Shown: positions 12,272 through 32,792 of the stretch, one piece after another
Numbering within the stretch: the first letter of the stretch is position 1
How the letters are laid out: the number at the start of each line of letters is the position of its first letter
Assembly: GCA_019408975.1 (NCBI GenBank)
Contig: DXVA01000001.1
Location: 1-33,417 of the forward strand
Direction: 5' to 3'
Source: Lentisphaeria bacterium
GTDB lineage: Bacteria; Verrucomicrobiota; Lentisphaeria; Victivallales; UBA1829
Length of the DNA stretch: 33,417 nucleotides
Position numbers and translations under genes: made by a program
The notes under the pieces: generated by a model
What the model saw: the letters and a program-made list of their open reading frames with translations, nothing else
Told to the model about the DNA's origin: nothing
Databases searched by the model: none

Positions 12272-13330
12272 TCAGCAGCTTTCCCGCCGGATCAGCCGAA
12301 GTGTCCCGGACAGATGGAAATTGCGGAATGAATCGCGGTCCAGCGCTTCACTGAAGCGGCGCAGGCAGAGACGTCCGTTCTGGTCGTTGCAAAGATCAAT
12401 GACGGTCAATGCCGGATGCAGCTGTTCGGTGGCAGGCAGGTTGTCCACCCCGGTAACGGCGACTGTATCCGGCACGCGCAGTCCGAGCATACGTTCCAAC
12501 GTCTGAACCGCTTCCATCGCGATGGTGCTGACTGTGCAGCTGAACACATCGAACGAACCGGCAAGTTCGCGCAGTTCCTCCAGGTTTTCGTTCCCATAGC
12601 CATGCCAGTTCCTGGAATCGGCGGAGATGCCGTGTTTACGGCATTCCTCCGCGAGAAGACGGGTGCGGTTGTCCGAGATGGGGAAATTGCCGCCGAGGAT
12701 CAGGACACGCCGGAACCCGCGCCGGGCGTAGTATTCCGCCAGCAAAGCCGCGATTTGCGTTTCATCATGGTAGACCGTGGAGCAGCCGGCAGGTGTTTTT
12801 CCGTAAATATTGGGTCCGTAGAACAGACAGGGCAGTTTCTGCCGCCGTAGCTCCTCCTGCGCCCGGAGCAGATTGTCATGTCCCCGGAAGAAGATTACAC
12901 CGGCCGCTTCGGGGTAGATCATTTTCACGTTGTCGAGATTGTGAAAGAAATCATCCAGCTTGACGAGCGCGGGCTCGCAGGAGAGATCGGCTGTAACCGA
13001 TTCATCCAGAGCCCCCAGGAGAAAGTCGAAATAATCATCCCGCTTCCACGTGTGCAGTTCACCGTAACCGGGGACGATCAGAATCCGTCCTTTGCGGCTG
13101 CGTGGCGAGACGAATGTGCCTTGTCCGTGGCGGCGGTAGATGATCTTTTCCGCAACCAGGTTATTCAATGCCTTGCGCACCGTGCCGACGCTGAGGTTGT
13201 ATTCCTGTGCCAGCTGCGACTCGGACGGCAGCCGGTCGTGCCGTTTCAGGCGGTGTTCGGAGATATAGCGTTTTACTTCATTCTCCAGTTTGCGGTAGAC
13301 TGGCAGCTGTTCCCAAAGTTTCCGGTCCAT
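12272..13330 (-). CDS. AraR-type chimeric regulator: GntR-family winged-HTH fused to a LacI/PBP1-type sugar-sensor domain
   Basis: The N-terminus LPSESQLAQEYNLSVGTVRKALNNLVAEKIIYRRHGQGTFV is a GntR wHTH. The rest resembles a LacI-type periplasmic-binding fold (..VLILGG.., ..VPDTVAVTGVDN..). Start 13330 follows AGGAAAGG; the listed start is 13363. It is divergent from the prepilin-like/lyase operon. Confidence 0.8.
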   Translation of the reverse strand: MDRKLWEQLPVYRKLENEVKRYISEHRLKRHDRLPSESQLAQEYNLSVGTVRKALNNLVAEKIIYRRHGQGTFVSPRSRKGRILIVPGYGELHTWKRDDYFDFLLGALDESVTADLSCEPALVKLDDFFHNLDNVKMIYPEAAGVIFFRGHDNLLRAQEELRRQKLPCLFYGPNIYGKTPAGCSTVYHDETQIAALLAEYYARRGFRRVLILGGNFPISDNRTRLLAEECRKHGISADSRNWHGYGNENLEELRELAGSFDVFSCTVSTIAMEAVQTLERMLGLRVPDTVAVTGVDNLPATEQLHPALTVIDLCNDQNGRLCLRRFSEALDRDSFRNFHLSGTLRLIRRESC

Positions 13331-13424
13331 AAATGCCTTTCCTGTTTTGTGGAAAGATAGCACTCCTGTAACGAAGTTGCCAGTTCAAAATATGATTTTT
13401 TCGGCTTTTTTCAAGGTTTGCCTC

Positions 13425-13452
13425 TTGACAAAACCGCATTTGTATTTATAAT
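13425..13452 (+). promoter_or_regulatory. Near-consensus sigma70 promoter facing the prepilin-like/heparinase-like operon
   Basis: TTGACA (13425-13430), 16-nt spacer, TATAAT (13447-13452). The predicted TSS near 13459 leaves a leader of about 535 nt before GTG 13995. Confidence 0.55.
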
Positions 13453-13684
13453 ATTGAACTATACTCCTATATAGAAGTTGAGAATGTAATGAAAACGAAT
13501 GGAACAGGAAAGGGAGAAAAATGAAGCGGAACTCGGATTGGAGCGGGCTGCAAAACATGAAAGGCTGTCCGGAGTATCCGGACAGGATGAAACTGCGGGA
13601 TTGCGTACAGAACAGAATGCCGGTCTTTATGGAAGACAGTGGCGCAGTGGAAGATCTGCTCTGCGGACGTCTGAGCAGCAGTGT

Positions 13685-13810
13685 TTCTTTCTTCATTCAA
13701 TTGTTAAATTGTTCTAATGTTCGCTTGTTCAAATGTTTCCCGGTGCCCTGTTTTTCTGTTCCTGCTTCGAGGGTGAAAATAAGATTTTTCACTCTGATAG
13801 AGCTCTTCAT
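13685..13810 (+). repeat. Copy 1 of a duplicated 5' module (leader plus first ~12 codons of a prepilin-like gene), decayed
   Basis: 13685-13730 is identical over 46 bp to 13889-13934. The homology resumes at ..TTCGAGGGTGAAAATAAGATTTTTCACTCTGATAGAGCT.., which encodes [11 protein letters not shown] and then diverges (FMRKSCK..). Confidence 0.9.
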
Positions 13811-13888
13811 GAGGAAAAGCTGTAAAATTGGTATTTCATTCCGGTATCAGGATAGTACAGGACGCTGCTATTCCCCTGATTTTGCTTC

Positions 13889-14032
13889 TTCTTTCTTCAT
13901 TCAATTGTTAAATTGTTCTAATGTTCGCTTGTTCGATTGTTTTCCCGTTCCTTCTTCCTTCCGTGTCCCTTGCTCGATATTCTTACTTCGCAGGGTGAAA
14001 ACAAGAATTTTCACCCTGATAGAGCTTCTCAT
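13889..14032 (+). repeat. Copy 2 of the duplicated 5' module, attached to the intact prepilin-like gene
   Basis: The 46-bp perfect core 13889-13934 lies 204 bp downstream of copy 1. It is followed by a pyrimidine-rich stretch and CGCAGGGTGAAAACAAGAATTTTCACCCTGATAGAGCT, encoding [11 protein letters not shown]. The module is 18 nt longer than copy 1. Confidence 0.9.
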
Positions 14033-14735
14033 TGTGATTTCTATCATCGCGATTCTTGCGGCAATGCTGCTGCCTGCCTTGAATAAAGCCAGAGAAACGG
14101 CACGTTCGATTTCCTGCACTAATAATCTTTCCCAGGTCGGTAAAGCCCAGCACATGTATTCCAGCGATTATCAGGAGTGGATTGTGCCTATGGTGCAGGG
14201 AAATTATTACTGGCATCACCGACTTTCCGGAATAGATGACAACGGCGTCAGAATATCGGTTTTCAGCAACTATGGAATTACGTTCAGGGGACGTACCAGA
14301 ACGGAAGGAACTCTGGTGTGTCCATCCGAGACCGTGCCGTTTTCCGATAAAGCGGAGTCCGGGTTCCGTTTTTCTCATTATGGGGCAAATGCCTGTGCAT
14401 TGGGGTATTCCGGCTTTTTTTCCTCCGGCAGCAAATATTATTCCCGTAAAATTTCGGCAATTGTCCAGCCGACGATTGCGATATTTGCCGGAGACAACGT
14501 GAGACGCACCGATCCCATTATCAATTGGGCGCAGTTTTTCGCCTATCGTCATGGCAGCCCTGATTCTAGGACCAGCATGGCTGCCGTCGTGGGGACAGAT
14601 ATTCCTTTCGGGAAAGGACGCGCCAATTCCGTGTATTTTGACGGTCATGCGGCTCCCCGAACCTTTCTTGAACAGAAAGCGGAGAATTATGATCTGACTG
14701 CGGGAATTGATATCAATAAGGGGGTGGCATTATGA
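13995..14735 (+). CDS. Prepilin-type N-terminal domain protein of the PVC DUF1559 / H-X9-DG paralog family (module A)
   Basis: (V/M)[33 protein letters not shown] is a type IV pilin-like N-terminal helix with Glu at +5. The C-terminal ..YRHG..(insertion)..[10 protein letters not shown] is a variant of H-X9-DG. A GTG start at 13995 is proposed by analogy with paralog B. The ORF is open back to ATG 13809 and ATG 13521 (AGGGAG SD), so a gene finder may call 13521..14735. Confidence 0.75.
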
Positions 14736-16888
14736 AAAAGGAATTTCTAGCCGGACTTCTGCTTCTTGCAATGTGTTCCGTTTCAGCCGACTGGACGGAA
14801 AAAATCCGTGCCGATCATCCGCGGCTGTACATCAACCGGGAGATGGTTCCGCAGATGAGGCGGCATGCCGGACATTACCATGTGCTGGTGGAGAAGATGA
14901 AACGTGAGACGGATACGCTGCCGATGCCGCCGGAACTGAAATTCCATTCCGGGCGTTTTGAGCTGTCCGGCGGACGGGTGAAGTACAAAGCTCCTTATAT
15001 TGTCGGCACTCAGCTGGTGGAGCGGAACGGCGCGCAGGAGGCTGTCAAAGCCGCAACGCTTTATTGGCTGACCGGAAAGCATGACTATGCGGTGAAGGGG
15101 ATCGCATACCTCAAAATGGCGCTGGATTTCTTTGAATGGTGCCATCGGCATCATACCATGGTTGAATGGGAAGCAAGACAATATATTAACGCGATTGTGG
15201 CTTATGACTGGCTTTATCCGGAAATGACGCCGGAGGAGCGGAAGGATTTCGGCACCCGATGGCTGAAGCATGTTCAGGCGGTTCAGGGGAAAATAGACTA
15301 TCGGCGCTGTAACGGAGATTACAGAGACGGCAATTACGGTGTCGGCAGTTACTCCTGGCTGACAGGCCTGGCAATGTTCCGGGACGGTTATGACGATGTC
15401 GCAGCGGAGCGTCTGCTGCGTTCCGGTTATGAGAACAATCTTAAAATGATGGATTTCCGCGATCGGGTATCGGCGGGTACCGGATTGCTGGGGGCTGCCA
15501 CTCAGAGCTACTCATTCGGAGCTTATCCTTTCATGACCTTTCATTTTCTGCATACATGGAAAAGTGCCACGGGGGAGGATATTGCAGGACGCTGGAACCA
15601 GATGCGGCATTATGCGGACTGGTTCGGCTGGATGAAGATTCCGAAAGACGGCATTCTGCATACCTATGGCATCGGAGATATGCCCCATGCCACCAATTTC
15701 CTGATGACCTTTCCGATGTTCACTCATATGGCGCAGTGCATTCATTTCTACCCGGAAACGGCGGAACAGGCTTACAGGCTGATCGGTATGCTGCCGGAAA
15801 AACAGCGGAGGTTTCATGACGGTTTTCCGTTTCTGCCGCTGATCCTGACCGGTTTCAACCCGGAACTGCCGCAGAAGACAGCGGAGCCTGCACCGTCTGG
15901 AAATGCCGCGTATTTCCCGGGGTTCGGTCTGGCGATCATGCGTTCCGGCGAACGGCAGTCGGATACCCACGCATTATTCCGGACCGGTGCACTGTATGGA
16001 AACCACCAGCATTACGACGAGAGCCATTTCATCATCTTCAAACATGACTTTCTGGCTCTGGATTCGGGAAGCCGGACGCAGAACATGCACCATTGCTATT
16101 ATGCGCCTCAGAGCGTGGCTCACAATACGATTCTGATTCACCGGGCGGGCGAGCCTGCCGCACCGTTCTGGAAGCCGTGGGGCAGCAGTGCGGAGACCAG
16201 TTCGGAAAAGGTGTTCAGCCACGGCGGGCAATACCGCACCGTCGGAGCGAAAAACCTGGCTTTTGCCGATTACCGCGATTATGTTTATGCCGCCAATGAT
16301 GCGACAGCGGTATATCGCGCGGACAAATGCCGCGAAGCAATACGCCAGTTTGTTTACATCCGCCCTGATTATTTTATCGTGTTCGACCGGGTGACTTCGG
16401 TAAAACCGGAACAGCGCAAGGAATATCTGCTGCATATGCAGAATCGTCCGCAGGAGATCGCACCGGGGCTTTACCGGATGGATAGCGGCAAAGGGAGACT
16501 GTTCCAGAAGACTTTATATCCGGTTCAACCGAAAATTACCATGATCGGCGGTGCCGGCAGACAGTTTTGGGCGTCGGGACGGAATTGGCCGCTGCCGCAG
16601 GGGGAAAAGGCGTTTGAGAATCCGAATTATTACGGTCAGTGGCGCTTGGAGATCAGCGATGGCAAACCGGCGGCGGAATCCCGTTTCCTGCATCTGCTCC
16701 AGGCAGCCGATACCGGAACGCCGGATATGGCGGCATCTGAACTGCTGGAAACTCCCGGAACGATCGGTGTGAGATTCGCCGATCGTTCCGGACGGAGCTG
16801 GGAGGTGCGTTTCAACCGCTCCGGCCCGGTTGGGGGGAGGATCACCGGGCGGGAAGGCAGCCGACTTCTGTTTGACCGGGCGCTTTGA
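14732..16888 (+). CDS. Heparinase II/III-like polysaccharide lyase, secreted
   Basis: Signal peptide [22 protein letters not shown]-terminal [11 protein letters not shown].. is an alginate-lyase/heparinase N-domain pattern. [35 protein letters not shown] is the Hepar_II_III motif. The ATGA overlap with the prepilin-like gene at 14732-14735 indicates translational coupling. Confidence 0.85.
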
Positions 16889-16910: not shown

Positions 16911-17951
16911 ATGAATTTTGAACCGATGACGATTTCCGGATTGGAGCCCCGTCCGGAATGGTGGCGGGTGCGTCCCGCCGAAATTACCGAAACATGTGAG
17001 GCTGTCCGGCGGGGGCGGCATCAGGTGATTGCGCGAACGCCCGGCGGATATCCGGTTCATGCGGTATTTTACGGCGATTTTTCCGAGCCGGCTCCGCAGA
17101 CCAACTGGTCGGCGGGGTCTGCCGCCGGCGTCGACTGCTACTTTCGCCGGGCAGGAATGCCGCAGACGGTTGTCTGGTGTGCCGGAATCCACGGTGCGGA
17201 GGCGGAAGGCGTGGCGTTTGCCGTGAACCTGATCGAACTGCTGGAACACGGGAGGGACCTGCTCGGGCGGCGGCATGACCGTTTGCTGGAGATGCTGGAC
17301 AGCTATCGTCTGGTGATTCTGCCGTGTGTGAATATGGACGGGCGCGCGATTTCGCCGGATCATCTGCGCGGAGTTCCCTACGAGGTGTTCCGGCGGGCGT
17401 CCCAGGGCGTCTGGCCGGACGGCTCCCTGATCGGCTGGCTTGGCAGCAAGGAGTATTTCCCGCTGCCGCTGGACCGTGTTTCATATCCCGGCGGATATCC
17501 CAATTCGGAGGGGTTCAACATCATGCACGATGCCTGTCCGGGGCATATTCGCACGGCGGAGGCGCGTGCTCTTTTGCAGCTGGCGGAGCATTATGCGGTG
17601 GATTTCCTGCTGAATGCGCATTCCTGTGAGGGAGAGCCGTTTCTGCTGCCTCCTTCGGAGTTTGATTACAGAAGCCATGTCGCACGCGGGCTGGATGCCT
17701 GCCGCATGGTCAATCGGGCATTGTATGACGCCGGTTTGCGCCGTACTCCGCCTTCGGAGCCTGCCGCCGGGCACGGCGTGAACCTGAACAACCTGGTCGC
17801 GCTGGCATCCGGGGGACTGGCTATGACTCTTGAGTGTTCCGTCTGGGGGGAACTTTCTTTTGAACAGTTGCTCGACGTGAATTTCCTGACGTTTGAAACA
17901 CTGTTGGAATCGGGACTGAAGGTGCCGTTCGTCAACCGCCATGCACTGTAA
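16911..17951 (+). CDS. M14-family zinc carboxypeptidase-like protein, no signal peptide
   Basis: IHGAEAEG (HxxE), LPCVNMDGR, LLNAHS (second His) and MTLECS (catalytic Glu context). GGAGAGG lies 8 nt upstream of ATG 16911. The listed ORF start 16830 overlaps the lyase gene. Confidence 0.6.
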   Translation: MNFEPMTISGLEPRPEWWRVRPAEITETCEAVRRGRHQVIARTPGGYPVHAVFYGDFSEPAPQTNWSAGSAAGVDCYFRRAGMPQTVVWCAGIHGAEAEGVAFAVNLIELLEHGRDLLGRRHDRLLEMLDSYRLVILPCVNMDGRAISPDHLRGVPYEVFRRASQGVWPDGSLIGWLGSKEYFPLPLDRVSYPGGYPNSEGFNIMHDACPGHIRTAEARALLQLAEHYAVDFLLNAHSCEGEPFLLPPSEFDYRSHVARGLDACRMVNRALYDAGLRRTPPSEPAAGHGVNLNNLVALASGGLAMTLECSVWGELSFEQLLDVNFLTFETLLESGLKVPFVNRHAL

Positions 17952-18812: not shown

Positions 18813-20249
18813 TTACCTCATGCGGATATTTTCTTTCAGGAAGTCATGATAACCGGCAGCTTTAAGCAGTTCCTTCCTGCGCAGGAAACCGTGCCAGTCT
18901 TTCTTTCCGGCAGGGCTCCACGCACATTCGGAATAGGCGGCAAGACGCGGCAGGAGTTTCTGCATGACGCGCCATTCGGGAATGGTTTCCGTCCAGAGAC
19001 AGGCTTCCGGCCCGAGGATCGTGTCTTTGAGTCTGTCCTCCCAGATGACATACGGGTCCGCCATATAGATGCCCCTTTCGGAGAGTTCGAACATCCATGT
19101 TTCAAACGGTTCGCTGAGGTTTGCCGGATAATCGAAATAAAATGAATTATGCACGGAGTAAACGACCTTGTTTCCATTCGGACCCACGCGGAGCGGTTCA
19201 CGGATGTCCAGCCAGGACTGGATGATCGTATCCGCGGGATAGGTCTGACCGGAACAGGTGCCCCAGAGCATGGGCGTGCGCCCCTGTTCGACGATGAAGC
19301 GTGTCATATCGACCATGAAGCTGTTTTCCAGTTCGCGCATGCTCCTGAATCCGCCTGCCTGCATTGCCGCTTTGCAGCGCGGGCAGTTCTCCCAGTGCAT
19401 CGTTTCCGCCTCGTCGCCGCCGAGATGGATGATCGGGCTGCCGGGAAAGACGGAGAGCAGTTCCATGAAAATCTTTTTCAGGAATACTTTTGTTTCGGGA
19501 TTGCCGAGGCAGAATTCCTTTCCCGGAGCGGCTGGATCGCAGGCATACTGCGGATAGGCGGCAAGGAGCCCGCGGGAGTGTCCAGGAATGTCGATTTCCG
19601 GTATGACCCGGATGTTGTGCCCGGCTGCAAATTCCGCCACCTCGCGGAGATCGTCGAGCGTATATTGCCCCGGAGAGAGCGTTGCCAGATTCGAGAGTTT
19701 CGGAACGAGATCGGAGGCGATGCGCCAGCCTTGTCCGTCCGTCAGGTGCCAGTGGAACGTATTCAGGCGGAAGTGCGCCATCAGGCGGATCACTGCCTTG
19801 ACCGTTTCTTTGCTTTGGAAATGCCTTGCGCTGTCCAGCATGAATCCGCGCCATCCGAAACGCGGTTCGTCGCTGACCGTGCCGCAGTTCAGGGCCGCCC
19901 CCGCTGGACCTTTGATCAGCGATGCAATGAGCATTTGCGAGAATGCCGCAAACGCATAGAATAATCCGGCTTTTCCGCCGCCTTCGATGAGAACGGCGGA
20001 CGGATCGATCCGCATTGCCCATGCTTCTTCCCCGAGTTTGGAGTTCCGCTTCAGGACAAGATCGGCGTCCGGGTCGGGAGACGGCATGATCCGCAAACCG
20101 AAGAATGCGGCGGTCCGCATGATTTCATCGGAAAACATTTGCAGTTCTTCCGGCACATGGAATGTTTTCAATTCGGAAACGGGCATGGCTCCGTCGTGTT
20201 TCCGTATGGCGTAAGGTATGGGAAGAATGGCATCGAAAGTATTGAACAT
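18813..20249 (-). CDS. GH20 beta-N-acetylhexosaminidase, apparently cytoplasmic
   Basis: RFGWRGFMLDSARHF, LNTFHWHLTDGQGWR, VIPEIDIPGHS and IHLGGDEA (catalytic D-E pair). No N-terminal hydrophobic signal peptide. Confidence 0.9.
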   Translation of the reverse strand: MFNTFDAILPIPYAIRKHDGAMPVSELKTFHVPEELQMFSDEIMRTAAFFGLRIMPSPDPDADLVLKRNSKLGEEAWAMRIDPSAVLIEGGGKAGLFYAFAAFSQMLIASLIKGPAGAALNCGTVSDEPRFGWRGFMLDSARHFQSKETVKAVIRLMAHFRLNTFHWHLTDGQGWRIASDLVPKLSNLATLSPGQYTLDDLREVAEFAAGHNIRVIPEIDIPGHSRGLLAAYPQYACDPAAPGKEFCLGNPETKVFLKKIFMELLSVFPGSPIIHLGGDEAETMHWENCPRCKAAMQAGGFRSMRELENSFMVDMTRFIVEQGRTPMLWGTCSGQTYPADTIIQSWLDIREPLRVGPNGNKVVYSVHNSFYFDYPANLSEPFETWMFELSERGIYMADPYVIWEDRLKDTILGPEACLWTETIPEWRVMQKLLPRLAAYSECAWSPAGKKDWHGFLRRKELLKAAGYHDFLKENIRMR

Positions 20250-20437: not shown

Positions 20438-21016
20438 ATGGAATGTCCTCTCTGCAAGACAGATCTGGAGGTCACGTTCGACTATGGTGGGTTGGTCGTC
20501 CAGTGCCCTGTGTGTTCCGACTATTTCAAAATTCCTTCGGTCAAGGAGTGCCCGCGGTGTCTGAAGCGGAGCTTCGTGAAGCGAGATGTCTGCGAGGAGT
20601 GCGGTTATGACTTCGCCGCCGTTGAGGAACTGATCGAAAAAGGCGGGGAGGATGTGGACGGGAAACTGTCTCTGAAACAGCGTTTTGCGGTTTTTCTATG
20701 GGATGCGTGCCCTGGATTGTTTTCGGCAGGGCCGCTGGTGGCGTTTTTCCTTTCTCTGGCATTTCTTGCCATTGCGGGGGTCGTGGGGGTGATGATGTTT
20801 CTTGCGGGGGTCATCTTCACCGCAGGCGGGGTGCTGATCGCCGGGCTGGTAGTCTATCTTCACGGTGTCGCGGCGCTTTGCCTTGGGGAGGTCTGCGGTT
20901 TGAAGACAGAGTTTGAGAATCTGAACGGCGCATCGTGGGAGGCGTTTTCCATTCTCGGTTTCGCGCCTGTGGTTCTCGGTTTCATCGCGCTCGGCGCCGC
21001 CAGATACTTCATGTAA
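20438..21016 (+). CDS. Hypothetical membrane protein with two N-terminal zinc ribbons
   Basis: CPLC..(15)..CPVC and CPRC..(11)..CEEC, followed by 3-4 Gly/Ala-rich hydrophobic helices. The first ribbon resembles the MJ0042-type finger (M.CP.C......v.CP.C...F.i). Confidence 0.6.
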   Translation: MECPLCKTDLEVTFDYGGLVVQCPVCSDYFKIPSVKECPRCLKRSFVKRDVCEECGYDFAAVEELIEKGGEDVDGKLSLKQRFAVFLWDACPGLFSAGPLVAFFLSLAFLAIAGVVGVMMFLAGVIFTAGGVLIAGLVVYLHGVAALCLGEVCGLKTEFENLNGASWEAFSILGFAPVVLGFIALGAARYFM

Positions 21017-21038: not shown

Positions 21039-21911
21039 ATGCTGAAATGCCAATGCCCTGAATGCGGAGTGAAAGCGGAACTTGAAAATTCCGCGTCAGA
21101 ACATCAATTCGCGTGCGAGTGCGGAAAGATTTACAGGATACCGCCCGCACCTCCCGCCGGAGATTTCAGAATCTGCCTGAACTGTTCCAAGCTGAACGAA
21201 TACGATGCGGGAATCTGTACCGGATGCAGTTTCAATTTCGTCAACAACAAAAAACATGCTCACAAAGTCAGAACGACCGAAGTTTCGCCGGGGAAGGGGT
21301 ATAGAATCGTAAAAAACGTGTTTCTGCTTCTCCTGCTGGCGGTTGCCGGGGGGCTCGGATACTGGATTTATTCCGCAGTTACGGCGAGTCCCATCGGGGT
21401 TTCGGGCGATGCGCCGCTTGGAACTTTCAAAGAAGGCAAGGATTTCAATTATGCCGTATTCAAACCGGTGAGCATGAAACTGCCTCCGAAGTGGAAGGAT
21501 TACAAGGGATACCAGTTTGTGCGCAAGAACAAGACTCCGCTCGGCGATGCCTTCGACCATGTCTTCCTGCTTGCCGACGCCAGAGGCAGAATTGCTGTGA
21601 TCAAGGGGCATTATACCGAGACCGTTGTTCCTTCCACTCCGGCGGAGAAAACTTTTTTCGAGCGTATCCGCAAAGAATACGGAATGCCGGAAGCGGAAGA
21701 TTTGAAACGAATCGGGGAGGACGGCGGAATGTTCAAACCGACGAAATACGAGGAAAAGTGGGAGAACGGCAGGATTCGCTATGTCCACAACCGGATCGGC
21801 AATCCGGGAACTTTCGGATTGAAAGCCGTCGGCACGATTTTCGTTACTCTGAAAGACAATCCGGTGACTCCGGAAGATCTTTCGGACATGCCCGAAGAAC
21901 GTCCGAAATGA
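21039..21911 (+). CDS. Hypothetical single-pass protein with N-terminal zinc ribbons and a ~170-aa extracytoplasmic domain
   Basis: CPECG..(14)..CECG and CLNC..(12)..CTGC, one TM helix (VFLLLLLAVAGGLGYWIYSAV), then a globular domain. AAGGGAAGGA lies upstream, 22 nt after the previous gene. Confidence 0.6.
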   Translation: MLKCQCPECGVKAELENSASEHQFACECGKIYRIPPAPPAGDFRICLNCSKLNEYDAGICTGCSFNFVNNKKHAHKVRTTEVSPGKGYRIVKNVFLLLLLAVAGGLGYWIYSAVTASPIGVSGDAPLGTFKEGKDFNYAVFKPVSMKLPPKWKDYKGYQFVRKNKTPLGDAFDHVFLLADARGRIAVIKGHYTETVVPSTPAEKTFFERIRKEYGMPEAEDLKRIGEDGGMFKPTKYEEKWENGRIRYVHNRIGNPGTFGLKAVGTIFVTLKDNPVTPEDLSDMPEERPK

Positions 21912-22756: not shown

Positions 22757-25591
22757 TTATTTTTCGCTCATCAGGAAAACATCTTTATAGAGACCGCCTT
22801 TACCTGCGGCATCAGTGACTTTGACGGTCAGCTGATGTACTCCCGGGCTCATATTTTCCGGAAGTCTGATTATGAACGGTTCCCGCCACAGGGTTGCGGC
22901 ATCGCCCTTATGATGCCCGCCGATGTATTTGCCATCAAGCCAGAGCCAGGCGCGTTCGTCTGCTCCGCCGAAATATAAAGAGTACCGTTTCCCGGATTTT
23001 ATTTCAATTGTTTTTCGATACCACGCCGTGCCGTCAAAAATGTATCCTTGATCCTCCCAGAAATTACCGCTTTTTATCGTATCCCATTTTGAGTCATCCA
23101 GATTGGGTGCAAACCATTTTTCTTTATCGCCGGCCGCTGCAAAATCAGTTTTGAATTTCCACGGATTCAAGATGTTTTCCAGATTGTATTTTTCTTTCAG
23201 GCTGCGGAAAACTGTTGCATTGTCCAGCAGTTGTTTGAATATGGTAAAACGATTGGTTCCATAAAATCCCTCCTTATGCCCTCCGGGAAGAATCTTCTGC
23301 GAAATCAGATGATCCAGCATTTTGCGTATCTCTTTCAGCTGTGATATGATTGAATCGTAACTTTTCTGATCGGGGGAATCATAAAAGTGGTTTGCAGATT
23401 TTATGAAACTGGAATGCAGCTTCAGGTATGCCCAGTATTTCTTCTCTCTTTCCAGGGCGCATAAGATGCGTTTATCGTGTCCGGCTTGCTTCTCTGCCTG
23501 TTTCAGCATATCTTTCATTGTCCGGAGCTGTTCTTCGCTGAACACGGGCACAGTAAGATATCCGTATCTTATATGGGCAGACGGTGCGGCAAGAGTCTGT
23601 TCCAATAGGCTGTAATAGTTTTTCATGAGATTGCCCGCCGGTCCATAGAGTTTATTGAAATAGTCATTCTTCAAAAGCATGTCGTTGAACCAGGGATTCC
23701 ATGCCAGGCGCGCACCGAGATAATGCTGAAAGGCATCTGCTCCGGCCCATCCATCCATAGTTTCTTCACAGATCCCTTGAATATTAAGAAGATTGAGAAA
23801 ACGGAAGTGTTCCGTATGGGACGCAACAGTTCCAAAGGTGGGGGATTCGGAAAAACACGGATTAAGATAGTGGTAGGTATAAACAATAATACGTCCGGAT
23901 ACCAGTTTGTTCCATTCAAGGAGGGCCGGATAATTTGACGCTTCGCAAAATAGAATCCAGACGCCCTCCGCCGGTTTTACCTTCTTCGGAGGTTCTTTTG
24001 TCCATGTATAGGCAAATATCAGAACCGATTTGCCGGGGTTTTTCCCGCGGATTCTGCGTGAAAGCACATTTGCCATATACATCTGCTGGTCTGTCGCTGT
24101 AATGACATTACTGCCGTCGGGACACAATGCGAGGCATTTTTCACACTGGCACCAAAGGCAGAACCCATCTTCCTGCATCAACGGGAAGTAGAATAAATCA
24201 GGATGTTTCCTGAAATATTCAACGGCAATTTCCGACAGCTTATTTATGACTTCCGGGTTTGTATTGCATATCTGTGCTGATTTTGCACGATATTTTCCGG
24301 TTGCTTTATCATAACAGAACCAGGCGGGATGATCTTTGAAATATTTTGAGGGTGGCAAATGCTGGTGATAAAAGCATTGTCCGTGAAGCGGAATGCTGCC
24401 GCCGCGGGTGTCATAAAATGTTTTTATGCTTTCGTCAGCGTTTCCCGTTTTCGGGAGCCTTCCGAGTTCTACATTAAAGCGGTTTTTGATTGTCCAGTCT
24501 GCCATATCCCAGATATGCTGTTTGAATCCTGCTGTTCTGCTGTCTGCGCAATAATGCGGGCGGCGATAGGAAAAGCATGGTGCCTCCGAGTCTTTGAAAA
24601 GCGGGATTTTCAGGTTCGGATTGAAGGGGACGATTTCTCCCCATTCAAATGGTGCAAACCAGCGGATTCCTGCCGCCTTTTCCAGAAAATCATAGACGGC
24701 ATAGAGCAATGCCCGTGGAGAATTGCCAACAATGGAGACCTTTTTCCCGTCGATGCTTTCTGAATGAAAAGCCTCTTCCGGCTTTGCAGGTATGACTTTG
24801 AGTTCGAATGATTTCCCGCCGGGGGTATTTTTTGAGTTGACGGGAAATATTTTACCTGTTGCCATGCCTAGATATTTTGCCAATTCCCCTGCCGCAAAAA
24901 TTTCTGTTTTTGTTGCATTTTTTCCTATCGTAATGGTAAAGCCGTCCAGAGAAACGGCATCTTTCCTGATTGTTTCCTTAAATGCGTAAGGAACGGATTT
25001 TTCATGTCGGCTGATTGCCGAAAGGTGTTTTCGGATTTCTCCTGTGTCTGAATTTTTGTTGGTGAGTCGTAGATTTCTGAATGCAAATTGTACATTTTCC
25101 CAGGCACAGAAACTGATTGCGTGAAGGGTTCCTTGTGAAGCAAGACTGCTGCTTCCTTTGGTGCCTCTGACAAAATAAAAGAAATGATTCAGGATTGCCG
25201 TTGCTCTGGCGCCGCTTTTTAATTCAAGAGTAACTGTCTTCCATTGAGGCGTGATTGTAAATATTGAATCAAATTGCGCATGATCATGTTTCGACAGGTT
25301 GCGGAATAATGTCAGGCAGAGGTTGTGATTTCTGTTGTCAAGAGACTTGATTTCCAGTTCTATATACTTATAATCGTTCAGCAGATTTCCGGATTTTACA
25401 TCAAACGATATCCAGGCGGATGATTTTCCCTGGGGGGGACACAGTGCCAATTCATATATTCCCTTCCGACATGCATAACGTCCACGCATGTCGTGAGGAC
25501 CTGCTTTTCCCAGTTTGATCATCCCTTCTGACGCATTGCAGAGAAAGATCGTAAATAATAACGTCGCTAATGCCGGTAAGGTTTTTTTCAT
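22757..25591 (-). CDS. Secreted DUF4838-like putative glycoside hydrolase with a C-terminal GH2-type sugar-binding (galactose-binding-like) domain
   Basis: Signal peptide MKKTLPALATLLFTIFLCNA. GNSPRALLYAVYDFLEKAAGIRWFAP matches the DUF4838/GH20b-like hallmark as I remember it. The C-terminal W..I..GNFWEDQGYIFDGTAWYRKTIEI..RYSLYFGGADERAWLWLDGKYIGGH is the GH2 N-terminal-domain pattern. AAAGGAG SD. Confidence 0.7.
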   Translation of the reverse strand: MKKTLPALATLLFTIFLCNASEGMIKLGKAGPHDMRGRYACRKGIYELALCPPQGKSSAWISFDVKSGNLLNDYKYIELEIKSLDNRNHNLCLTLFRNLSKHDHAQFDSIFTITPQWKTVTLELKSGARATAILNHFFYFVRGTKGSSSLASQGTLHAISFCAWENVQFAFRNLRLTNKNSDTGEIRKHLSAISRHEKSVPYAFKETIRKDAVSLDGFTITIGKNATKTEIFAAGELAKYLGMATGKIFPVNSKNTPGGKSFELKVIPAKPEEAFHSESIDGKKVSIVGNSPRALLYAVYDFLEKAAGIRWFAPFEWGEIVPFNPNLKIPLFKDSEAPCFSYRRPHYCADSRTAGFKQHIWDMADWTIKNRFNVELGRLPKTGNADESIKTFYDTRGGSIPLHGQCFYHQHLPPSKYFKDHPAWFCYDKATGKYRAKSAQICNTNPEVINKLSEIAVEYFRKHPDLFYFPLMQEDGFCLWCQCEKCLALCPDGSNVITATDQQMYMANVLSRRIRGKNPGKSVLIFAYTWTKEPPKKVKPAEGVWILFCEASNYPALLEWNKLVSGRIIVYTYHYLNPCFSESPTFGTVASHTEHFRFLNLLNIQGICEETMDGWAGADAFQHYLGARLAWNPWFNDMLLKNDYFNKLYGPAGNLMKNYYSLLEQTLAAPSAHIRYGYLTVPVFSEEQLRTMKDMLKQAEKQAGHDKRILCALEREKKYWAYLKLHSSFIKSANHFYDSPDQKSYDSIISQLKEIRKMLDHLISQKILPGGHKEGFYGTNRFTIFKQLLDNATVFRSLKEKYNLENILNPWKFKTDFAAAGDKEKWFAPNLDDSKWDTIKSGNFWEDQGYIFDGTAWYRKTIEIKSGKRYSLYFGGADERAWLWLDGKYIGGHHKGDAATLWREPFIIRLPENMSPGVHQLTVKVTDAAGKGGLYKDVFLMSEK

Positions 25592-25683: not shown

Positions 25684-26811
25684 TCATCTGCGATATTCTT
25701 CATAGCTGAGATCCTCCTGAAGCTGCTCCGGCAGAGGAGTGGTGTCATAAAGATGGACTGTTTCCTCATCTTCTTCGATTGTCTGGAACGTGTTGATCCA
25801 TGTCAGGTAGTTTTCTTCCTGGACGGTACAGCCGCAGCTGCGGGCGATCCGCAGTTTCGGTTCGAGAAGAATCTGCTCCCGCGGGAAATCTTTTCCGTGG
25901 ATTATTTTGTCGATCATAATCCGCGCTACCAGCTTGCCGAAGTGTTCCATCGGCTGGATGACGGTCGTGATCGCGGGGGATGTGAATTTGGTGAATGACA
26001 TGCCGTCGAATCCTGTGACGGCGATATCTTCCGGAATCCGGATGCCGTGCCGCTGAAGATAACGGGAAAGTCTGGCGGCGATGAAATCATTGGTACAGAG
26101 GAATGCCGTCAGTTTTTCTTTGATCACGGCATCCCGGAGCCGGCGCATGGAATCTGGATTTTTCAGAACGTGGATCATCCAGCTTTCAGCAGGTTTGATC
26201 CCGTATTCCGCCAGCTTTGCCTTGTAGCCTGCGAGTTTCGGGTCATTCGGGGCAAGGGCGCCGATCAATCCGATGCGGCGATGTCCGTGGACGGTGATCA
26301 GATGCTCTGCAAGCATTTCAGCACCCCTCCGTATATTGATGCCGTATGGTCCGTGATCGCCGGTCATGAGGATCGGCAGGTCATAAGACTTGGACAGGCG
26401 GGCATTGTCGCAGCGCAGAAAGATGATGCCGTCCGCACACCTGCTGGAGAACTGCCGTATCAGAGCGTCCTGATCTTTTTTCGCCTTCTGCATCGGCATG
26501 CTCGTGATGAAAGTTTCAAATCCTTCGGCGTTCAGCGTTCTTACGACACAGTTCAGAAGCTCCGTATTGGGAGCGATCATAAATGACGGCTGCACGATTC
26601 CGATGCTGCGTGACATGCCGCCGCGCAGGGCTACCGCCATGATGTTGGACTGATATCCCATTTCCCGGGCAACCTGCCTGACCAGTGCTTTCGTTTTTTC
26701 CGAAACTTTCGTGGTTCCATGCGAATAGCCGTCCGGTTTGAGCGCCAGAGACACCGCCTGCATCGAGACGTTGCATTTTTCCGCGATATCTTTAAGAGAA
26801 ACTCCCCGCAT
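25684..26811 (-). CDS. LacI-family transcriptional regulator
   Basis: MRGVSLKDIAEKCNVSMQAVSLAL..VSEKTKALVRQVAREMGYQSN is a LacI HTH, followed by a PBP1 sugar-binding fold (SIGIVQP.., ..IGLIGA.., ..AVTGFDG..). AAGGAG lies 6 nt upstream of ATG 26811; the listed start 26988 is unsupported. Confidence 0.85.
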   Translation of the reverse strand: MRGVSLKDIAEKCNVSMQAVSLALKPDGYSHGTTKVSEKTKALVRQVAREMGYQSNIMAVALRGGMSRSIGIVQPSFMIAPNTELLNCVVRTLNAEGFETFITSMPMQKAKKDQDALIRQFSSRCADGIIFLRCDNARLSKSYDLPILMTGDHGPYGINIRRGAEMLAEHLITVHGHRRIGLIGALAPNDPKLAGYKAKLAEYGIKPAESWMIHVLKNPDSMRRLRDAVIKEKLTAFLCTNDFIAARLSRYLQRHGIRIPEDIAVTGFDGMSFTKFTSPAITTVIQPMEHFGKLVARIMIDKIIHGKDFPREQILLEPKLRIARSCGCTVQEENYLTWINTFQTIEEDEETVHLYDTTPLPEQLQEDLSYEEYRR

Positions 26812-27103: not shown

Positions 27104-27487
27104 ATGAAACCGGGTGATTCTTTTGATTGTCCGCACTGCGGAAGAAATACCTTTTTGAAAAAGGAGACGGTCATGGAGGGGTGGACCAGAAAAGGCGAGG
27201 TCCTGAAATGTGTTTCCTGCGGCGCCGTGATTGAGGAGCTGAAAGAGGAAAAGACCGGGAAAAAAGTCTCTCCTCTGGAAAATGACGCGGCTCTGAAGTT
27301 CAAGAGTCTGCTGGGGGAGGAGTTCGGGAAGAAACCGGAGATCAAGGCTGCGGCGGATGAAAAGAAGTTCTGCCGGGACTGTGCGCACCTGATCGCGCAT
27401 CCGTTCCTGACGCGGTGCATGAAGTTCGCCAAAGATGTCAATCCGATGGATGACTGTCCGTCATTCACCCCGAAAAAAGAGGAGTGA
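27104..27487 (+). CDS. Hypothetical small zinc-ribbon / Cys-cluster protein
   Basis: C9xxC12...C36xxC39 forms a zinc ribbon. The middle is acidic and Lys-rich. The C-terminus carries C90xxC93...C105...C118. GGGAG lies 8 nt upstream. The stop is 3 nt before the TatD-like gene. Confidence 0.6.
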   Translation: MKPGDSFDCPHCGRNTFLKKETVMEGWTRKGEVLKCVSCGAVIEELKEEKTGKKVSPLENDAALKFKSLLGEEFGKKPEIKAAADEKKFCRDCAHLIAHPFLTRCMKFAKDVNPMDDCPSFTPKKEE

Positions 27488-27490
27488 GCC

Positions 27491-28453: not shown

Positions 28454-28782
28454 TCAGATGATTGCGGGATAAATTCTGATTTTCATTCCGCCTGCGTTTT
28501 GGAAGACTCCTTTTGCATCTCCGCTCAGTTCAGGCGTCAGGGTGTATTCTCCCGGAGTGAGCCCCGATGTTTTAGCCGGATACGGAAGGACTGCTTCCCT
28601 GCGGGAGCGGCTTTGAAGTCATATTTCACTTTCCCGTTTCTGTCCCGCAGACGGAACGTAATCCCGTGGTTCCGGATTTCCAGAGGTGAAACATTCAGCT
28701 CGGCAATGGAGGATACGATGTCTCCGGATGCACACTCCAGAACCGGAGATTTGAATTCGACTGCCGCATCGTTGCGCCGCAT
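28454..28782 (-). pseudogene. Frameshifted small beta-sandwich-like ORF directly abutting the beta-helix gene stop
   Basis: On the minus strand, TGA (28785-28783) is followed immediately by ATG 28782. MRRNDAAVEFKSPVLECASGDIV..ITFRLRDRNGKVKYDFKAAPAGKQ then continues plausibly only in the -1 frame (AVLPYPAKTSGLTPGEYTLTPELSGDAKGVFQNAGGMKIRIYPAII*, stop 28456-28454). The listed ORF 28537..28782 ends in an Arg-rich tail. Confidence 0.4.
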
Positions 28783-31758
28783 TCACCGGGTCCGGACGTC
28801 ATACAGGGGATTTTTGCCGACGAGCGCATGAAATTCCTGTCCCCGGCGCGGCAGAAGCCGGACCGGTGCAAGTTCCCGCCCGTCGAAAGTGGGCCTGATC
28901 TCCTCTTCTCCGAAGGCGAGTTTCAGCACGACCTGTTTTCCGTGTTCCGTTTTTCCCAGCGGGCGCGCGGCCTCCTGTCCGGAGAAACGGAATACGAGCG
29001 TCCCGTTTCCCCGCTCCGAGCGGATTGCGGCCCGGAAAACGCCCGCCTGAAGGAATGTGTGCTCTCCCACCCGCTGCGTGATCCGCATGACGAGTTCGAG
29101 TTCCCCCCGGAACGGCGTTTTGAGCGCCAGCGGAATGAGAACCGGGGCATCCTGCCTGTATACACCCCGGACACCGCCGCATTTGTCAACAGTGAAGATC
29201 AGTTCCGGCTTGTAACGGACTCTGCATTGAAACAGGCTCAGTTTCCGTTCGTCGATTCCTCTTCCGGGACCGGCCTGCAGCTCGAACTCCGTTCCGGATG
29301 GGATGGCCCCGATATCGGCAGAAGCGTCCTGCTCCTCCAGCATCAGAGTTCCCTTTCCGATCAGCGGGCTGTTTCCGTTCAGGCGATAGTCTCCGTTTTC
29401 GTAATCCCGGAAGCCGACTTCTCCTGCGGATTTCAGGGTTGCCCCGTTTCCGGCGGAAACGAGGTCTTTGTGCGGGTCGTCCGCGCGTGTGAGGTTCCAG
29501 TTGCGGAAAAATTCAATCAGGCTGCCGCGCCATTCCGGTTTGTAGTGCATCCCGTAAGTCTGGTTCAGATTGTTGAAAAAGCGGAAATTGACGAGTTCCC
29601 GCTTTGCCGGGCCGTAGACCGGCTGGGGCGTCGTGAGCAGATTGTGCTCCGGCTGGAGAATCGTGTTGTTGAACACCAGGAATCCGGGATCGGGAACCGT
29701 GACGGCCCGTTTGGAGATTCGCGATTCCTGTTCTGCGGTCGTTGTACTTCCCATGTGGGGATAGGTCCAGTTCTGCCCGCTTGCGCCGAGCTTGAAGACT
29801 CCCAGGGACCCGCCGAGTGCTTTCCGGAGCGGCGCCAGCGCCGGAGTTTCCGTGAACAGATTCCGGTAGATGAAGACCGGGCCCGGCCATGGGGTTCCGC
29901 ACAACGGCTGCCAGGAGACCGCTTCGACGTTGTCCTCGAACAGATTGCCGTACACACGGACATCCGCCGCGTGATTTTCCGTTTCGACGGCGTTGTCCAC
30001 GATCCGGCGGAAAATGTTGCCGTATACGCGCAGATGTTTCGCCCTGTCGACACACCAGCTGGAAAAGCCTTCGAAGGAGTCCTCCACGATGCAGTCCCGC
30101 ACGTGCCAGTCGGACCGGACACCGCCGATGATTCCTGTTTCATAGCATTTGAACGGTCTCCGCATGTAATCCGTGTTTTTTCCTTTGTAGCCCCAGAAGT
30201 AAAAACGGAATTTTTCGGCGGTTTCGGTTCCGTGATGCTGCCTGATGATCCGGTTCGTTTCCTGAAACACAGGGAACTGGTCGTAGACGCAGTTTTCCAC
30301 GAATACGCCGCTTCCGCCGGCTACTCCGAAGCGGCATCCCTTGAAGCGGCAGTTCCGCACGACGAGCCGTTCGCCCCGGTTTCCGACCCCGGCCATGGCG
30401 GGTGTTTCAAACGTGATGCCGTCGATGATGATGTGCGCTTTTCCCTTGATGTCAATGAACAGGTTGGCATCGCCCGGCTTTGTCAGGTGATGGCCGTTGG
30501 CTCCTTTCGATGCGGGAGGCGCGATGGAGAAAACGTGCCGGTTCGGGTCCGGCGATCCATACATCCCACCGGTGTGCAGGCGGACGTAAAGGCGTTTTGC
30601 CTTTTCGTCGTAGGTGTAGCCGTTGAACGGTCCCGGGTAGCCGTCTTTCAACGTGAAACTGCGGAGCCCGTCCACATCGTAGTATCCGCCGAAAAGATCG
30701 ATCCGTTCATCGTACAGAATACGCGCCGGGTAATGGTCGAACGGAATGCTGTAAATCTGGTGTTCCGCGTCTTCGAGCTTCCAGACAACCTTTTTTTCAC
30801 GCACGGCCCTGTCCGCCGCAGTGAGAACGACGCGGCCGTCTGCCCGGAACGTGACCGGAGCGTTTTCCGTCCCGCCGCGCGAAAGGACGACGTTTTCATA
30901 GTAAACGCCGGGCGCGATGATGACACTGTCGCCGGGATTCACGGAATCCGCCGCTTTCTGGATCGTGGCGAGCGGGCGTTCCGGCGAAAGCCCGTCGTCG
31001 GCGTCGTTTCCGGTTTTGCCGTTTACGTAGCGGGTGGCGGGAGCCGGGGCTGACAATGCGGATTTTCCGCTTTTCTCCGTCGGAAATCTGACCTTGCAGA
31101 GCGATTCGAGCTCCGCATTGTTCAGCGCACGGTCGAAAACGGAGAGCGCGAGAATCCGGGTTCCCGCCGGAGCGAAGAAGCCGCACTTTTTGCTGCTGAA
31201 GCGCCTTCCGCCGATTGAAAGAAACCGTTCCCCGGCGTTCGGCGCGAGCCGCCGGACCGCCGAGGCGTCCGCCCTGCCGTTCCGCAGTAAGACGCCGTCG
31301 CGCACTCGGAACAGATCAAAACGCAGTTCCTCACCGGGGATGAAACGGAGAATATATTCCACTTCGGTCTCCGGCGGCAGTTTCAGAGAGGTGGAGTCCA
31401 AAAAAAGAAAACTGTTTTCCCTGCTGCCGTCGGAAAGGAGCAGGGACGGTCTGCCGCCGTCCGGAGAATACGGCGTTTTCTCCGCGAACCCCGCCTCGTA
31501 TCCGCGCAGTCCGTTTTCCGTGCGGAAACGGGAGATGAGCGCACCCGTCGGCGAATCCGGATACCTCACCCGGACCCGGACTGTCTGCGCTCCGGTGTGC
31601 CGCCAGGGATGGGCGAGCAGTGTTTTTCCGTCCAGTACCGTCGGGATCGTCGTTTTTCCCGCGACGCCCCGTTCGGAGAAGGTTTTTACATTTGTGATTT
31701 CCGCTCCGCGGAGCAGGATGGTGACGAATGCCAGAAACAGCGAAAGATGACATTTCAT
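28783..31758 (-). CDS. Secreted LamG-domain plus right-handed parallel beta-helix protein (putative polysaccharide lyase/hydrolase)
   Basis: Signal peptide MKCHLSLFLAFVTILLRGAEI after AAGGAAA. LSVFDRALNNAELESL is a LamG-type motif. DGLSPERPLATIQKAADSVNPGDSVIIAPGVYYENVVL, then PbH1-like repeats (NCRFKGCRFG.., VRDCIVEDSFEGFS.., VYGNLFEDNVEAVS). The listed ORF start 31926 overlaps the upstream gene. Confidence 0.8.
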   Translation of the reverse strand: MKCHLSLFLAFVTILLRGAEITNVKTFSERGVAGKTTIPTVLDGKTLLAHPWRHTGAQTVRVRVRYPDSPTGALISRFRTENGLRGYEAGFAEKTPYSPDGGRPSLLLSDGSRENSFLFLDSTSLKLPPETEVEYILRFIPGEELRFDLFRVRDGVLLRNGRADASAVRRLAPNAGERFLSIGGRRFSSKKCGFFAPAGTRILALSVFDRALNNAELESLCKVRFPTEKSGKSALSAPAPATRYVNGKTGNDADDGLSPERPLATIQKAADSVNPGDSVIIAPGVYYENVVLSRGGTENAPVTFRADGRVVLTAADRAVREKKVVWKLEDAEHQIYSIPFDHYPARILYDERIDLFGGYYDVDGLRSFTLKDGYPGPFNGYTYDEKAKRLYVRLHTGGMYGSPDPNRHVFSIAPPASKGANGHHLTKPGDANLFIDIKGKAHIIIDGITFETPAMAGVGNRGERLVVRNCRFKGCRFGVAGGSGVFVENCVYDQFPVFQETNRIIRQHHGTETAEKFRFYFWGYKGKNTDYMRRPFKCYETGIIGGVRSDWHVRDCIVEDSFEGFSSWCVDRAKHLRVYGNIFRRIVDNAVETENHAADVRVYGNLFEDNVEAVSWQPLCGTPWPGPVFIYRNLFTETPALAPLRKALGGSLGVFKLGASGQNWTYPHMGSTTTAEQESRISKRAVTVPDPGFLVFNNTILQPEHNLLTTPQPVYGPAKRELVNFRFFNNLNQTYGMHYKPEWRGSLIEFFRNWNLTRADDPHKDLVSAGNGATLKSAGEVGFRDYENGDYRLNGNSPLIGKGTLMLEEQDASADIGAIPSGTEFELQAGPGRGIDERKLSLFQCRVRYKPELIFTVDKCGGVRGVYRQDAPVLIPLALKTPFRGELELVMRITQRVGEHTFLQAGVFRAAIRSERGNGTLVFRFSGQEAARPLGKTEHGKQVVLKLAFGEEEIRPTFDGRELAPVRLLPRRGQEFHALVGKNPLYDVRTR

Positions 31759-31804
31759 AGAATTTTCCTTGTTGTTTTTATTCCCGTGCGCGTCTGGAGA
31801 TTTC

Positions 31805-32626
31805 TCAGTCGTAATCCGCCCAGAAGCTGACATTCCGATTGCTTTGGTTCGATGCAAGGCTGACGGTTGAAATTCTGGTGGAGCCCCAGGATTCCACATG
31901 GCCGTCAACGAATGCGATGTTCGCATAGCTGCCGTGTCTTCGGGCGATGTTGCCCTGATTCATAAGATGCAGCGCCCTGTAATTGTAGGACGTTTCCCCG
32001 TTGTTGCGGACGCAGGAGAAATCGGAAACCAGCACCCGCCACGACGCGCGACGGACATTGCTCATTTTATTGTAGCCGTTGTTGTTGAGCATGGTCAGGC
32101 TGAAACAGAGACGGGCGTTGAAGGAGTAACTGAAATTCGGCATGTTTCCGTCGTTGGGCGCGGTGAATCCTTCGCCGTCGCGTCTTCCCGCCGGACAGAC
32201 TGCGAACGGAGCGACGTCGTGATTCTTTGCCTCGCTGTCGTCGGCGACAATATAATTTTTGCCGTTGTCCACATATGGGAGCAGAGTCTTGTCAAAACGG
32301 CCAGGAGAGACCGGGCCAAAGAAATAGCGCGGTGTGTAGTAGGAGTCCTTCTGGTCGGCGCTGTTGTAGATTTTGCCCCAGCCGTTGAAACAGTCCGCAT
32401 AATTCATCATCGCCAAAGAGAGCGTTTTCAGATTCGACATGCATTGAATACTCTGCGCTTTTTCCCTGGCTTTCGCCAGCGCGGGCAGGAGCAGAGCGGC
32501 AAGTATGGCGATGATTCCGACGACGATGATGAGTTCCAGAATGGTGAAATTCATTCGGAGCCGGTAAAGGGCGGGGATGCGGCGCGGTTGTTGTTCCTGT
32601 TTTTTTTGCGGCATAAGTGAAAGCAT
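31805..32626 (-). CDS. Prepilin-type N-terminal domain protein of the DUF1559 / H-X9-DG paralog family (module C)
   Basis: ..[34 protein letters not shown]; the C-terminal [16 protein letters not shown] is an exact H-X9-DG. ATG 32626 has AAGGAA 7 nt upstream. ATG 32554 (MNFTILEL) is the short-leader alternative. The listed start 32995 runs into the lpxK 3' end and is rejected. Confidence 0.8.
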
Positions 32627-32764
32627 TACGTCATTCCTTGTTTGGGGTTTCTGTTTCGGCGGCAAACCACCTTGTGCACCGGTATTGGTCTCCGTTCCGG
32701 GATAATGGGCGAAGATCGCATCAGAATGAGACTTTTTTGATCTTTCGATCCCCGCTTCTGTTTT

Positions 32765-32792
32765 TATTATAAGTAAAAAGTCCGAAGTGACA
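32765..32792 (-). promoter_or_regulatory. Candidate promoter of the prepilin-like/beta-helix operon
   Basis: On the minus strand: CCCCTC-TTGTCA (32792-32787), 16-nt spacer, TATAAT (32770-32765). Confidence 0.45.

Follow-up and report, generated by a model that had tools for sequence, protein, structure and literature searches.

Pseudopilins of type II secretion systems (T2SS; GspG-K) and type IV pilins are among the described systems that most resemble three pilin-like genes, pilA, pilB and pilC, each of which lies beside a gene for a large exported protein in a stretch of 33,417 nucleotides from a Lentisphaeria bacterium (the window, taken at its full length). Throughout, PL denotes a pilin-like gene or protein and head its variable C-terminal domain following the N-terminal helix. 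The FTLIEL...P22 helix and, in a structural model, the lollipop shape are common to PLs and these pilins. However, GspG-K and type IV pilins number about five per genome, whereas full-length PL searches, which are driven by the N-terminus, returned more than 7,600 homologues, and a single planctomycete genome, that of Planctopirus limnophila, holds 68 DUF1559 paralogues, two of which are essential (PMC10632474). The expanded DUF1559 family has no known function (PMC10632474, PMC4807772). PLs of the type described here differ further in lacking Gly or Ala at position -1, in carrying a head of ~190 residues without a match in the PDB, and in being encoded beside individual candidate cargo genes rather than, as pseudopilins are, in the operon of the machine. 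The membrane-bound T2SS chaperones Lif/LipB and CpaB (PMC4713064) are likewise small, have one N-terminal membrane helix, lie beside a single exported enzyme and are probably co-expressed with it, but they share neither sequence nor fold with PLs, which have a pilin-type helix and form one very large family for many unrelated enzymes.

Polysaccharide utilization loci (PULs) of Bacteroidota also combine a sugar sensor, exported glycan enzymes and a non-catalytic envelope protein in a substrate-inducible unit, as the unit described here would presumably be. Unlike PULs, this unit is minimal, with a single regulator, a single PL and a single enzyme, and neither SusC/D genes nor TonB-dependent, ABC, MFS or other transporter genes were found at positions 10000-33417, as the original prediction, an earlier reading of the sequence, had stated for SusC/D. 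In Streptococcus sanguinis, modular minor pilins carry lectins (PMC9934059), so that a glycan-binding pilin and a variable functional head on a pilin scaffold both have a precedent, but these pilins are few, belong to the pilus operon, have no paired enzymes and show recognisable lectin folds. The GH136 enzyme LnbX, a glycosidase with a beta-helix, depends on the protein encoded by the neighbouring gene lnbY (PMC7335108), and the model of one enzyme in the window, enzC, resembles GH136 and GH120; LnbY, however, is all-helical and not pilin-like, and the sequence similarity between enzC and LnbX is marginal. The pili-like fibres of Planctomycetes (PMC5394234) handle polysaccharide without SusC/D within the same Planctomycetes-Verrucomicrobia-Chlamydiae (PVC) group, but no link to DUF1559 has been made, and the arrangement reported below was weak in the non-Lentisphaerota loci sampled. 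The literature on DUF1559, H-X9-DG and prepilins or pseudopilins in Lentisphaerae, Kiritimatiella, Victivallis and Verrucomicrobia contained no description of this arrangement or of the loss of Gly(-1). Its components belong to known families (pilin-like DUF1559 proteins, LacI/GntR regulators and proteins resembling carbohydrate-active enzymes), but the whole is neither a SusC/D PUL nor a canonical pseudopilin set.

Within a human-gut metagenome scaffold of 50.9 kb, the window makes up the first 33.4 kb. Its nearest relatives are metagenome-assembled genomes (MAGs) of Victivallales/Lentisphaerota and Victivallis vadensis. A ribosomal-protein/SecY operon and two peptidase genes occupy positions 1-12.2 kb, and three cassettes fill the remainder. 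The genes, coordinates and junctions of the original prediction were confirmed, with independent gene calls as a further check on the junctions, including three PL genes beside three large proteins with Sec-type signal peptides and two sugar-type regulators:

12272-13330, minus strand: cassette A regulator, with a GntR winged helix (Pfam, 5.7e-18) and a LacI-type sugar-binding Peripla_BP_3 domain (1.9e-15), divergent from pilA.
13995-14735, plus strand: pilA, DUF1559 PL gene (PF07596, 9.3e-8, 32.9 bits, cut-off 23.3; TIGR02532, 20.7 bits).
14732-16888, plus strand: heparinase II/III-like lyase of 718 aa (Pfam Hepar_II_III_C; NCBIfam HepB, 4e-32), with a Sec signal peptide.
25684-26811, minus strand: cassette B regulator of the LacI family (Pfam LacI and Peripla_BP_3, 3.5e-26).
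22757-25591, minus strand: DUF4838 protein of 944 aa (Pfam, 3.6e-35), carrying a Sec signal peptide and, at its C-terminus, a GH2_N-like jelly roll.
21935-22705, minus strand: pilB, PL gene downstream of its enzyme, an uncommon order (TIGR02532, 20 bits).
31805-32626, minus strand: pilC, DUF1559 PL gene (PF07596, 2.1e-8, 35.0 bits, cut-off 23.3) with an exact H-X9-DG motif.
28783-31758, minus strand: enzC, exported beta-helix glycoside-hydrolase-like protein of 991 aa with a Sec-type signal peptide (AlphaFold2 model, predicted local distance difference test (pLDDT) 90.3).

The pairing was compared with chance in 80 related loci (L001-L080, 1.2 Mb) containing 124 PL genes, obtained by a PL-alignment scan with one genome per species. 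Neighbours were counted from custom open reading frame (ORF) calls and a simple signal-peptide rule, both crude, and proteins of at least 500 aa with a signal peptide were designated large exported. The downstream neighbour was large and exported for 47 of 119 PL genes (39%) but for 69 of 679 non-PL genes (10%; p=9e-14), whereas the upstream neighbour of PL genes was so for only 10 of 109. By this proxy for the genome-wide comparison with which the original prediction had proposed to refute itself, adjacency lay far above chance. A large exported neighbour on the same strand, found for all three PLs of the window, was present for 13% of non-PL genes in the related loci. Furthermore, a signal peptide was carried by 87% of the large proteins encoded directly after a PL, but by 43% of the remaining large proteins of these loci (odds ratio 8.8, p=2e-8). 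Upstream regulators, scored with local hidden Markov models (HMMs) of the LacI, GntR-periplasmic-binding-protein (PBP) and AraC types, directly preceded 32 of 109 PL genes (29%) and 37 of 673 others (5.5%; odds ratio 7.7, p=2e-12), bearing out the proposed tie between PL genes and sugar-type regulators.

Pfam annotation of 65 downstream neighbours gave CBM9 (nine), LamG (five), Hepar_II_III_C (four), GH42 (four), DUF4838, GH5 and CBM4_9 (three each), together with GH123, PL8, GH106, GH130 and GH127, while 81 upstream neighbours gave Peripla_BP_3 (21), GntR (14), LacI (nine) and AraC (seven). No such pattern of glycan families or regulators was found in 108 non-adjacent control genes of the same loci. 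These enrichments indicate that the modal unit comprises a regulator, a PL and an exported glycan-active protein; the commonest gene-run patterns were oPE and PE, and 11 independent loci examined with database gene calls and Pfam had the same architecture as that derived from the crude rules. Lentisphaerota showed the pattern strongly, whereas the few Verrucomicrobiota and Planctomycetota loci sampled showed it weakly. The cassette is thus mainly a trait of Lentisphaerota, where it accompanies the loss of Gly(-1), and its earlier description as a PVC analogue of a PUL was too broad.

Two of the three pairs were conserved as pairs. In cassette A, the stop codon of pilA and the start codon of the lyase overlap as ATGA (14732-14735), and the lyase matched heparinase II in the PDB (2fuq, E 7.6e-24). 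Orthologues of this cassette (L091, L092) showed identities of 44-49% for the PL, 49-50% for the lyase and 48-51% for an M14-like protein encoded as the third gene, and these genes stay together with a divergent GntR-type regulator amid otherwise unrelated flanking genes. The M14 gene precedes the PL in L091 and L092, whereas it follows the lyase in the window; the adjacency of PL and lyase was kept despite this move. In cassette C, pilC and enzC are separated by 46 nt. The best Foldseek matches of the enzC model were GH120 XylC (3.8e-11), GH136 lacto-N-biosidases (1e-10 to 7e-8) and GH87, and the model places a lectin-like beta-sandwich at each end of the beta-helix. Around enzC orthologues (39-46% identity), regulator, PL and enzyme always share a strand and are 2-41 nt apart; the PLs preceding the enzC orthologues of L093 and L094 are full-length orthologues of pilC (42-44% identity). 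L094 (a contig of GCA_964609825.1, 82-95 kb) carries three regulator-PL-enzyme cassettes in a row, with a GH39-like, a beta-helix, and a LamG plus CBM9 enzyme; a separate PBP-type regulator and a separate PL belong to each cassette. In cassettes A and C, whose orthologues are about 40-50% identical, PL head and enzyme have diverged in parallel, and PL and enzyme were duplicated as a unit in L023/L027 and in L064.

Cassette B differs. After the LacI regulator, the DUF4838 gene and pilB follow in the enzyme-first order, separated by 51 nt, whereas in all three loci examined with DUF4838 orthologues (L096-L098, 37-43% identity) the order is LacI, PL and DUF4838, with the LacI gene leading the cassettes of L096 and L098. 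The C-terminus of the DUF4838 protein matched sialate O-acetylesterase and GH2 sugar-binding domains in the PDB. The start of pilB is uncertain (ATG 22705 or GTG 22645), and pilB had no match to PF07596 (DUF1559) at E<=0.01. The proposed genetic linkage of PL and enzyme was supported by pairs A and C, conserved and co-diverging amid different flanks, whereas pair B is not a canonical partner pair.

The three PLs share FT(L/I)(I/L)EL...LLPAL, and residues F1, T2, E5 and P22 were invariant across 108 PLs. HMM matches to GspG, PilA, ComGC and GspH spanned the first 30-60 residues. Of the profiles suggested by the original prediction, PF07596 matched pilA and pilC with scores exceeding the Pfam gathering score, and TIGR02532, whose alignment in the window PLs begins only at model position 4, matched pilA and pilB with scores exceeding its cut-off; TIGR04294, which it had also suggested, matched none of the three, though 34 of 102 pilA homologues matched at E<=1. 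The common C-terminal H...DG motif that it had claimed was exact as H-X9-DG in pilC but took the forms H-X29-DG in pilA and H-X11-DS in pilB. PLs have a single hydrophobic N-terminal helix and a soluble head, a predicted topology with which the AlphaFold2 model of pilA (pLDDT 93.4) agrees in placing a 51-residue helix (8-58) before a compact head in a lollipop shape. Only the helix of this model matched solved pilins, and its head matched no fold in the PDB, lectins included. In the 108 PLs the head was hypervariable except for a Cys pair (99% conserved) and an R-H-x4-N-x4-D-G-H motif (77-94% conserved), which, judging from conservation, could form a disulfide bond and, in addition, a metal or structural site. 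The corresponding residues of mature pilC, whose F1 comes after MN at 32554, are C36, C118, H205, N210, D215, G216 and H217. A head-only search of 1.84 billion representatives returned 426 cluster representatives, all with the pilin-like layout.

Residue -1 is Ile in pilA and pilB and Asn in pilC. Among related PLs, Gly or Ala occupied this position in 37 of 115, and other residues were counted in 79 of 115. Lentisphaerota PLs have very short basic leaders (MKK, MKKS, MN) and nearly any residue at -1, whereas the examples from Verrucomicrobiota, Planctomycetota and Omnitrophota retain Gly; the variable residue implies either a prepilin peptidase of changed specificity or no cleavage in Lentisphaerota. 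PLs of the non-Gly/Ala type are in essence those of Lentisphaerota, and it is this type that occurs in cassettes: an exported-enzyme neighbour was present for 34 of 75 non-Gly/Ala PLs and 8 of 35 Gly/Ala PLs, and a regulator neighbour for 29 of 73 and 2 of 32, respectively.

Further features of cassettes A and C lie at the following positions:

13425-13452, plus strand: sigma-70-like promoter match TTGACA-16-TATAAT in the divergent gap between regulator and pilA (12/12 consensus; a consensus match only).
13685-14032, plus strand: tandem duplication of ~204 bp of the pilA 5' region, with copies at 13685-13810 and 13889-14032, from repeat analysis.
16911-17951, plus strand: M14-like peptidase-fold protein, third gene of cassette A (Pfam Peptidase_M14, 8.8e-7), without a signal peptide or a PL of its own, 22 nt after the lyase.
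32766-32793, minus strand: promoter-like site TTGTCA-16-TATAAT upstream of pilC (11/12 consensus; a consensus match only).

The region 13425-13452 was 85% conserved in L089, a relative of 69% identity. No promoter or terminator matches were found in the PL-enzyme gaps; the empty gaps and the promoter matches upstream of pilA and pilC are compatible with, but do not prove, co-transcription. The first copy of the pilA duplication contains a truncated PL start followed by unrelated sequence, and the duplication is absent from strain L082, whose lyase is identical. In V. vadensis and other MAGs (also L023, L060 and L069), truncated FTLIEL fragments lie directly upstream of full PL genes, and pilA and pilB share 82% DNA identity over their first 102 nt. 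Together, the duplication, the fragments and this identity suggest that PL 5' ends act as recombination joints at which cassettes are reshuffled.

The start codon of pilA is uncertain, the GTG at 13995 lacking a Shine-Dalgarno sequence. The frame ahead of it (13521-13994) is open for 158 codons, and its ATG is preceded by a strong Shine-Dalgarno sequence; public gene callers therefore extend pilA to 404 aa (start 13521). Orthologues show no conservation of this extension; the PL is thus probably translated without it, and the longer call is probably an artefact. An 11-bp hairpin, CAGGGTGAAAA-N6-TTTTCACCCTG (13991-14018, dG -16.2 kcal/mol), encloses the putative GTG start and recurs in the truncated copy (13769-13796, -14.1) and, in weaker form, in pilB (22623-22649 on the minus strand, -8.2). 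It may serve translation control or may simply follow from the codons for K..IFT; no Rfam match was found for the long pilA 5' region.

A GH20 hexosaminidase (18813-20249) without a signal peptide or a PL of its own and three small zinc-ribbon proteins (20438-21016, 21039-21911 and 27104-27487), two of them with hydrophobic C-terminal regions, are also encoded among the cassettes. Upstream of pilC, a gap filled with N in the source scaffold interrupts lpxK (32901-33417 and beyond). Other assemblies of this organism (L086, 7700-8860) contain the whole gene (391 aa); the interruption is an assembly artefact rather than biology. A candidate fourth pair, on the source scaffold beyond the window, was rejected because the 264-aa gene that follows a 970-aa LamG protein there does not resemble pilins.

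Considering these results, we propose the following scenario, to which we assign a probability of roughly 0.4: each PL is the dedicated envelope partner of the adjacent exported enzyme, acting as a cargo-dedicated subunit of a T2SS-like type IV filament. Regulator, PL and enzyme would be delivered as one sugar-inducible unit, released by the cytoplasmic LacI/GntR-type sensor upon arrival of the sugar. PL and enzyme would be transcribed and made together, pair A being translationally coupled through its ATGA overlap, and the enzyme would cross into the periplasm by Sec. The PL would insert through its invariant pilin helix (F1, E5, P22) and, after any processing, enter a shared filament machine, and its variable head would contact the co-made enzyme and either take it through an outer-membrane channel or retain it at the cell surface. 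That T2SS substrates can require adjacent, N-terminally anchored, cargo-specific helpers (PMC4713064) provides a precedent. The invariant helix argues that PLs engage pilin-handling machinery, while the near-exclusive association with exported partners, the PL-first order with the coupling in pair A, and the co-divergence of head and enzyme in A and C argue for a role specific to each enzyme in the envelope. The cytoplasmic GH20 and M14 proteins of the window, neither with its own PL, are likewise counted in favour of a partnership between PLs and exported enzymes. T2SS E/F ATPase and platform genes were, moreover, present in some related loci.

Several observations weigh against this scenario. 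The Gly or Ala at -1 that prepilin peptidases require is absent from the window PLs, and their cleavage and polymerisation are thus unproven. Genes for a secretion machine were not found in the window. Among 105 large exported proteins, 38 sit in gene runs without a PL. A comparison of 60 pairs revealed related enzymes with unrelated heads and related heads with unrelated enzymes; universal lock-and-key co-evolution was rejected since the Mann-Whitney test was not significant, the signal coming from a few unit duplications and orthologues, and PL-enzyme pairings are modular over long times. Neither a common docking module in the partner enzymes nor, among the matches of the head-only search, the 150 best head homologues included, a Rosetta-stone fusion of PL and enzyme was found. 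The similarity of pilB to the PLs of L096-L098 is confined to the N-terminal 56-59 aa; given this unrelated head and the enzyme-first order, pair B represents a rearranged or replaced partnership rather than a third case of the same design. A wider extension of the scenario, in which Lentisphaerota degrade glycans by a pilin-based route without SusC/D, using one shared filament machine and hundreds of interchangeable, enzyme-specific, sugar-switched PLs freed from the Gly(-1) rule, is offered as doubtful.

Among the alternatives, the one that survives best, though we regard it as unlikely, is that PLs are glycan-capture pilins, whose lectin-like head on a retractable fibre would bind the polysaccharide of the neighbouring enzyme and reel it to or into the periplasm, replacing capture of the SusC/D type. 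Dextran binds the planctomycete fibres and is seemingly internalised (PMC5394234), some modular minor pilins carry lectin modules (PMC9934059), and the sugar-sensing cassette regulators, the high variability of heads on a conserved scaffold and the absence of transporter and SusC/D genes from the cassettes and the whole of 10-33 kb would all agree with such capture. However, homologous enzymes, presumably with similar substrates, are accompanied by unrelated heads (L033 versus L062), and the modelled head matches neither a lectin nor any other fold in the PDB. The signal-peptide-specific tie and the fixed order of PL then enzyme suit a protein partner at least equally well.

PLs might instead be private chaperones, uncleaved in the absence of Gly(-1) and anchored in the inner membrane, whose periplasmic heads would fold or stabilise the enzyme without any filament. 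Most PLs, specifically those in cassettes, have a residue other than Gly or Ala at -1, and heads co-diverge with enzymes in pairs A and C. By sequence, PLs appear to share three of the four characteristics of T2SS chaperones, namely an adjacent gene, an N-terminal transmembrane segment and a periplasmic C-terminal domain (PMC4713064), and the GH136/GH120-like fold modelled for enzC recalls the dependence of LnbX on lnbY (PMC7335108). A plain anchor, however, would not hold F1, E5 and P22 invariant, with ~30 residues near-identical, over thousands of paralogues; this conservation argues for contact with pilin-handling machinery or for helix-helix packing, and we consider a purely chaperone role improbable. 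It is just as improbable that PLs with a general envelope role, such as in a generic fibre, merely head sugar operons by chance or have spread by recombination at 5' ends. In favour of this reading, pairings are modular at long range, many PLs stand alone, many exported enzymes have no PL, and the truncated fragments and the 82% identity of PL 5' ends point to frequent recombination. Against it, the orientation is strongly asymmetric (47 downstream versus 10 upstream), the partners are nearly always exported, and heads and enzymes co-diverge over 40-50% identity despite different flanks and changes of gene order.

In PVC bacteria, few paralogue families are as large as that of the DUF1559/H-X9-DG proteins, and the cassette provides the first concrete clue to the role of this family. 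Being statistically robust and conserved, it allows testable one-to-one predictions to be drawn for the family, each linking a PL, an enzyme and a sugar, and Victivallis vadensis, a human-gut isolate of the same group, is culturable. If the partnership of PL and enzyme is physical, it would provide a new answer to how T2SS-like machines choose their cargo and a new type of glycan-utilisation locus. If, in addition, one shared filament machine served the many sugar-switched PLs of Lentisphaerota, the composition of the filament, and hence the set of secreted or displayed enzymes, would be reprogrammed by diet.

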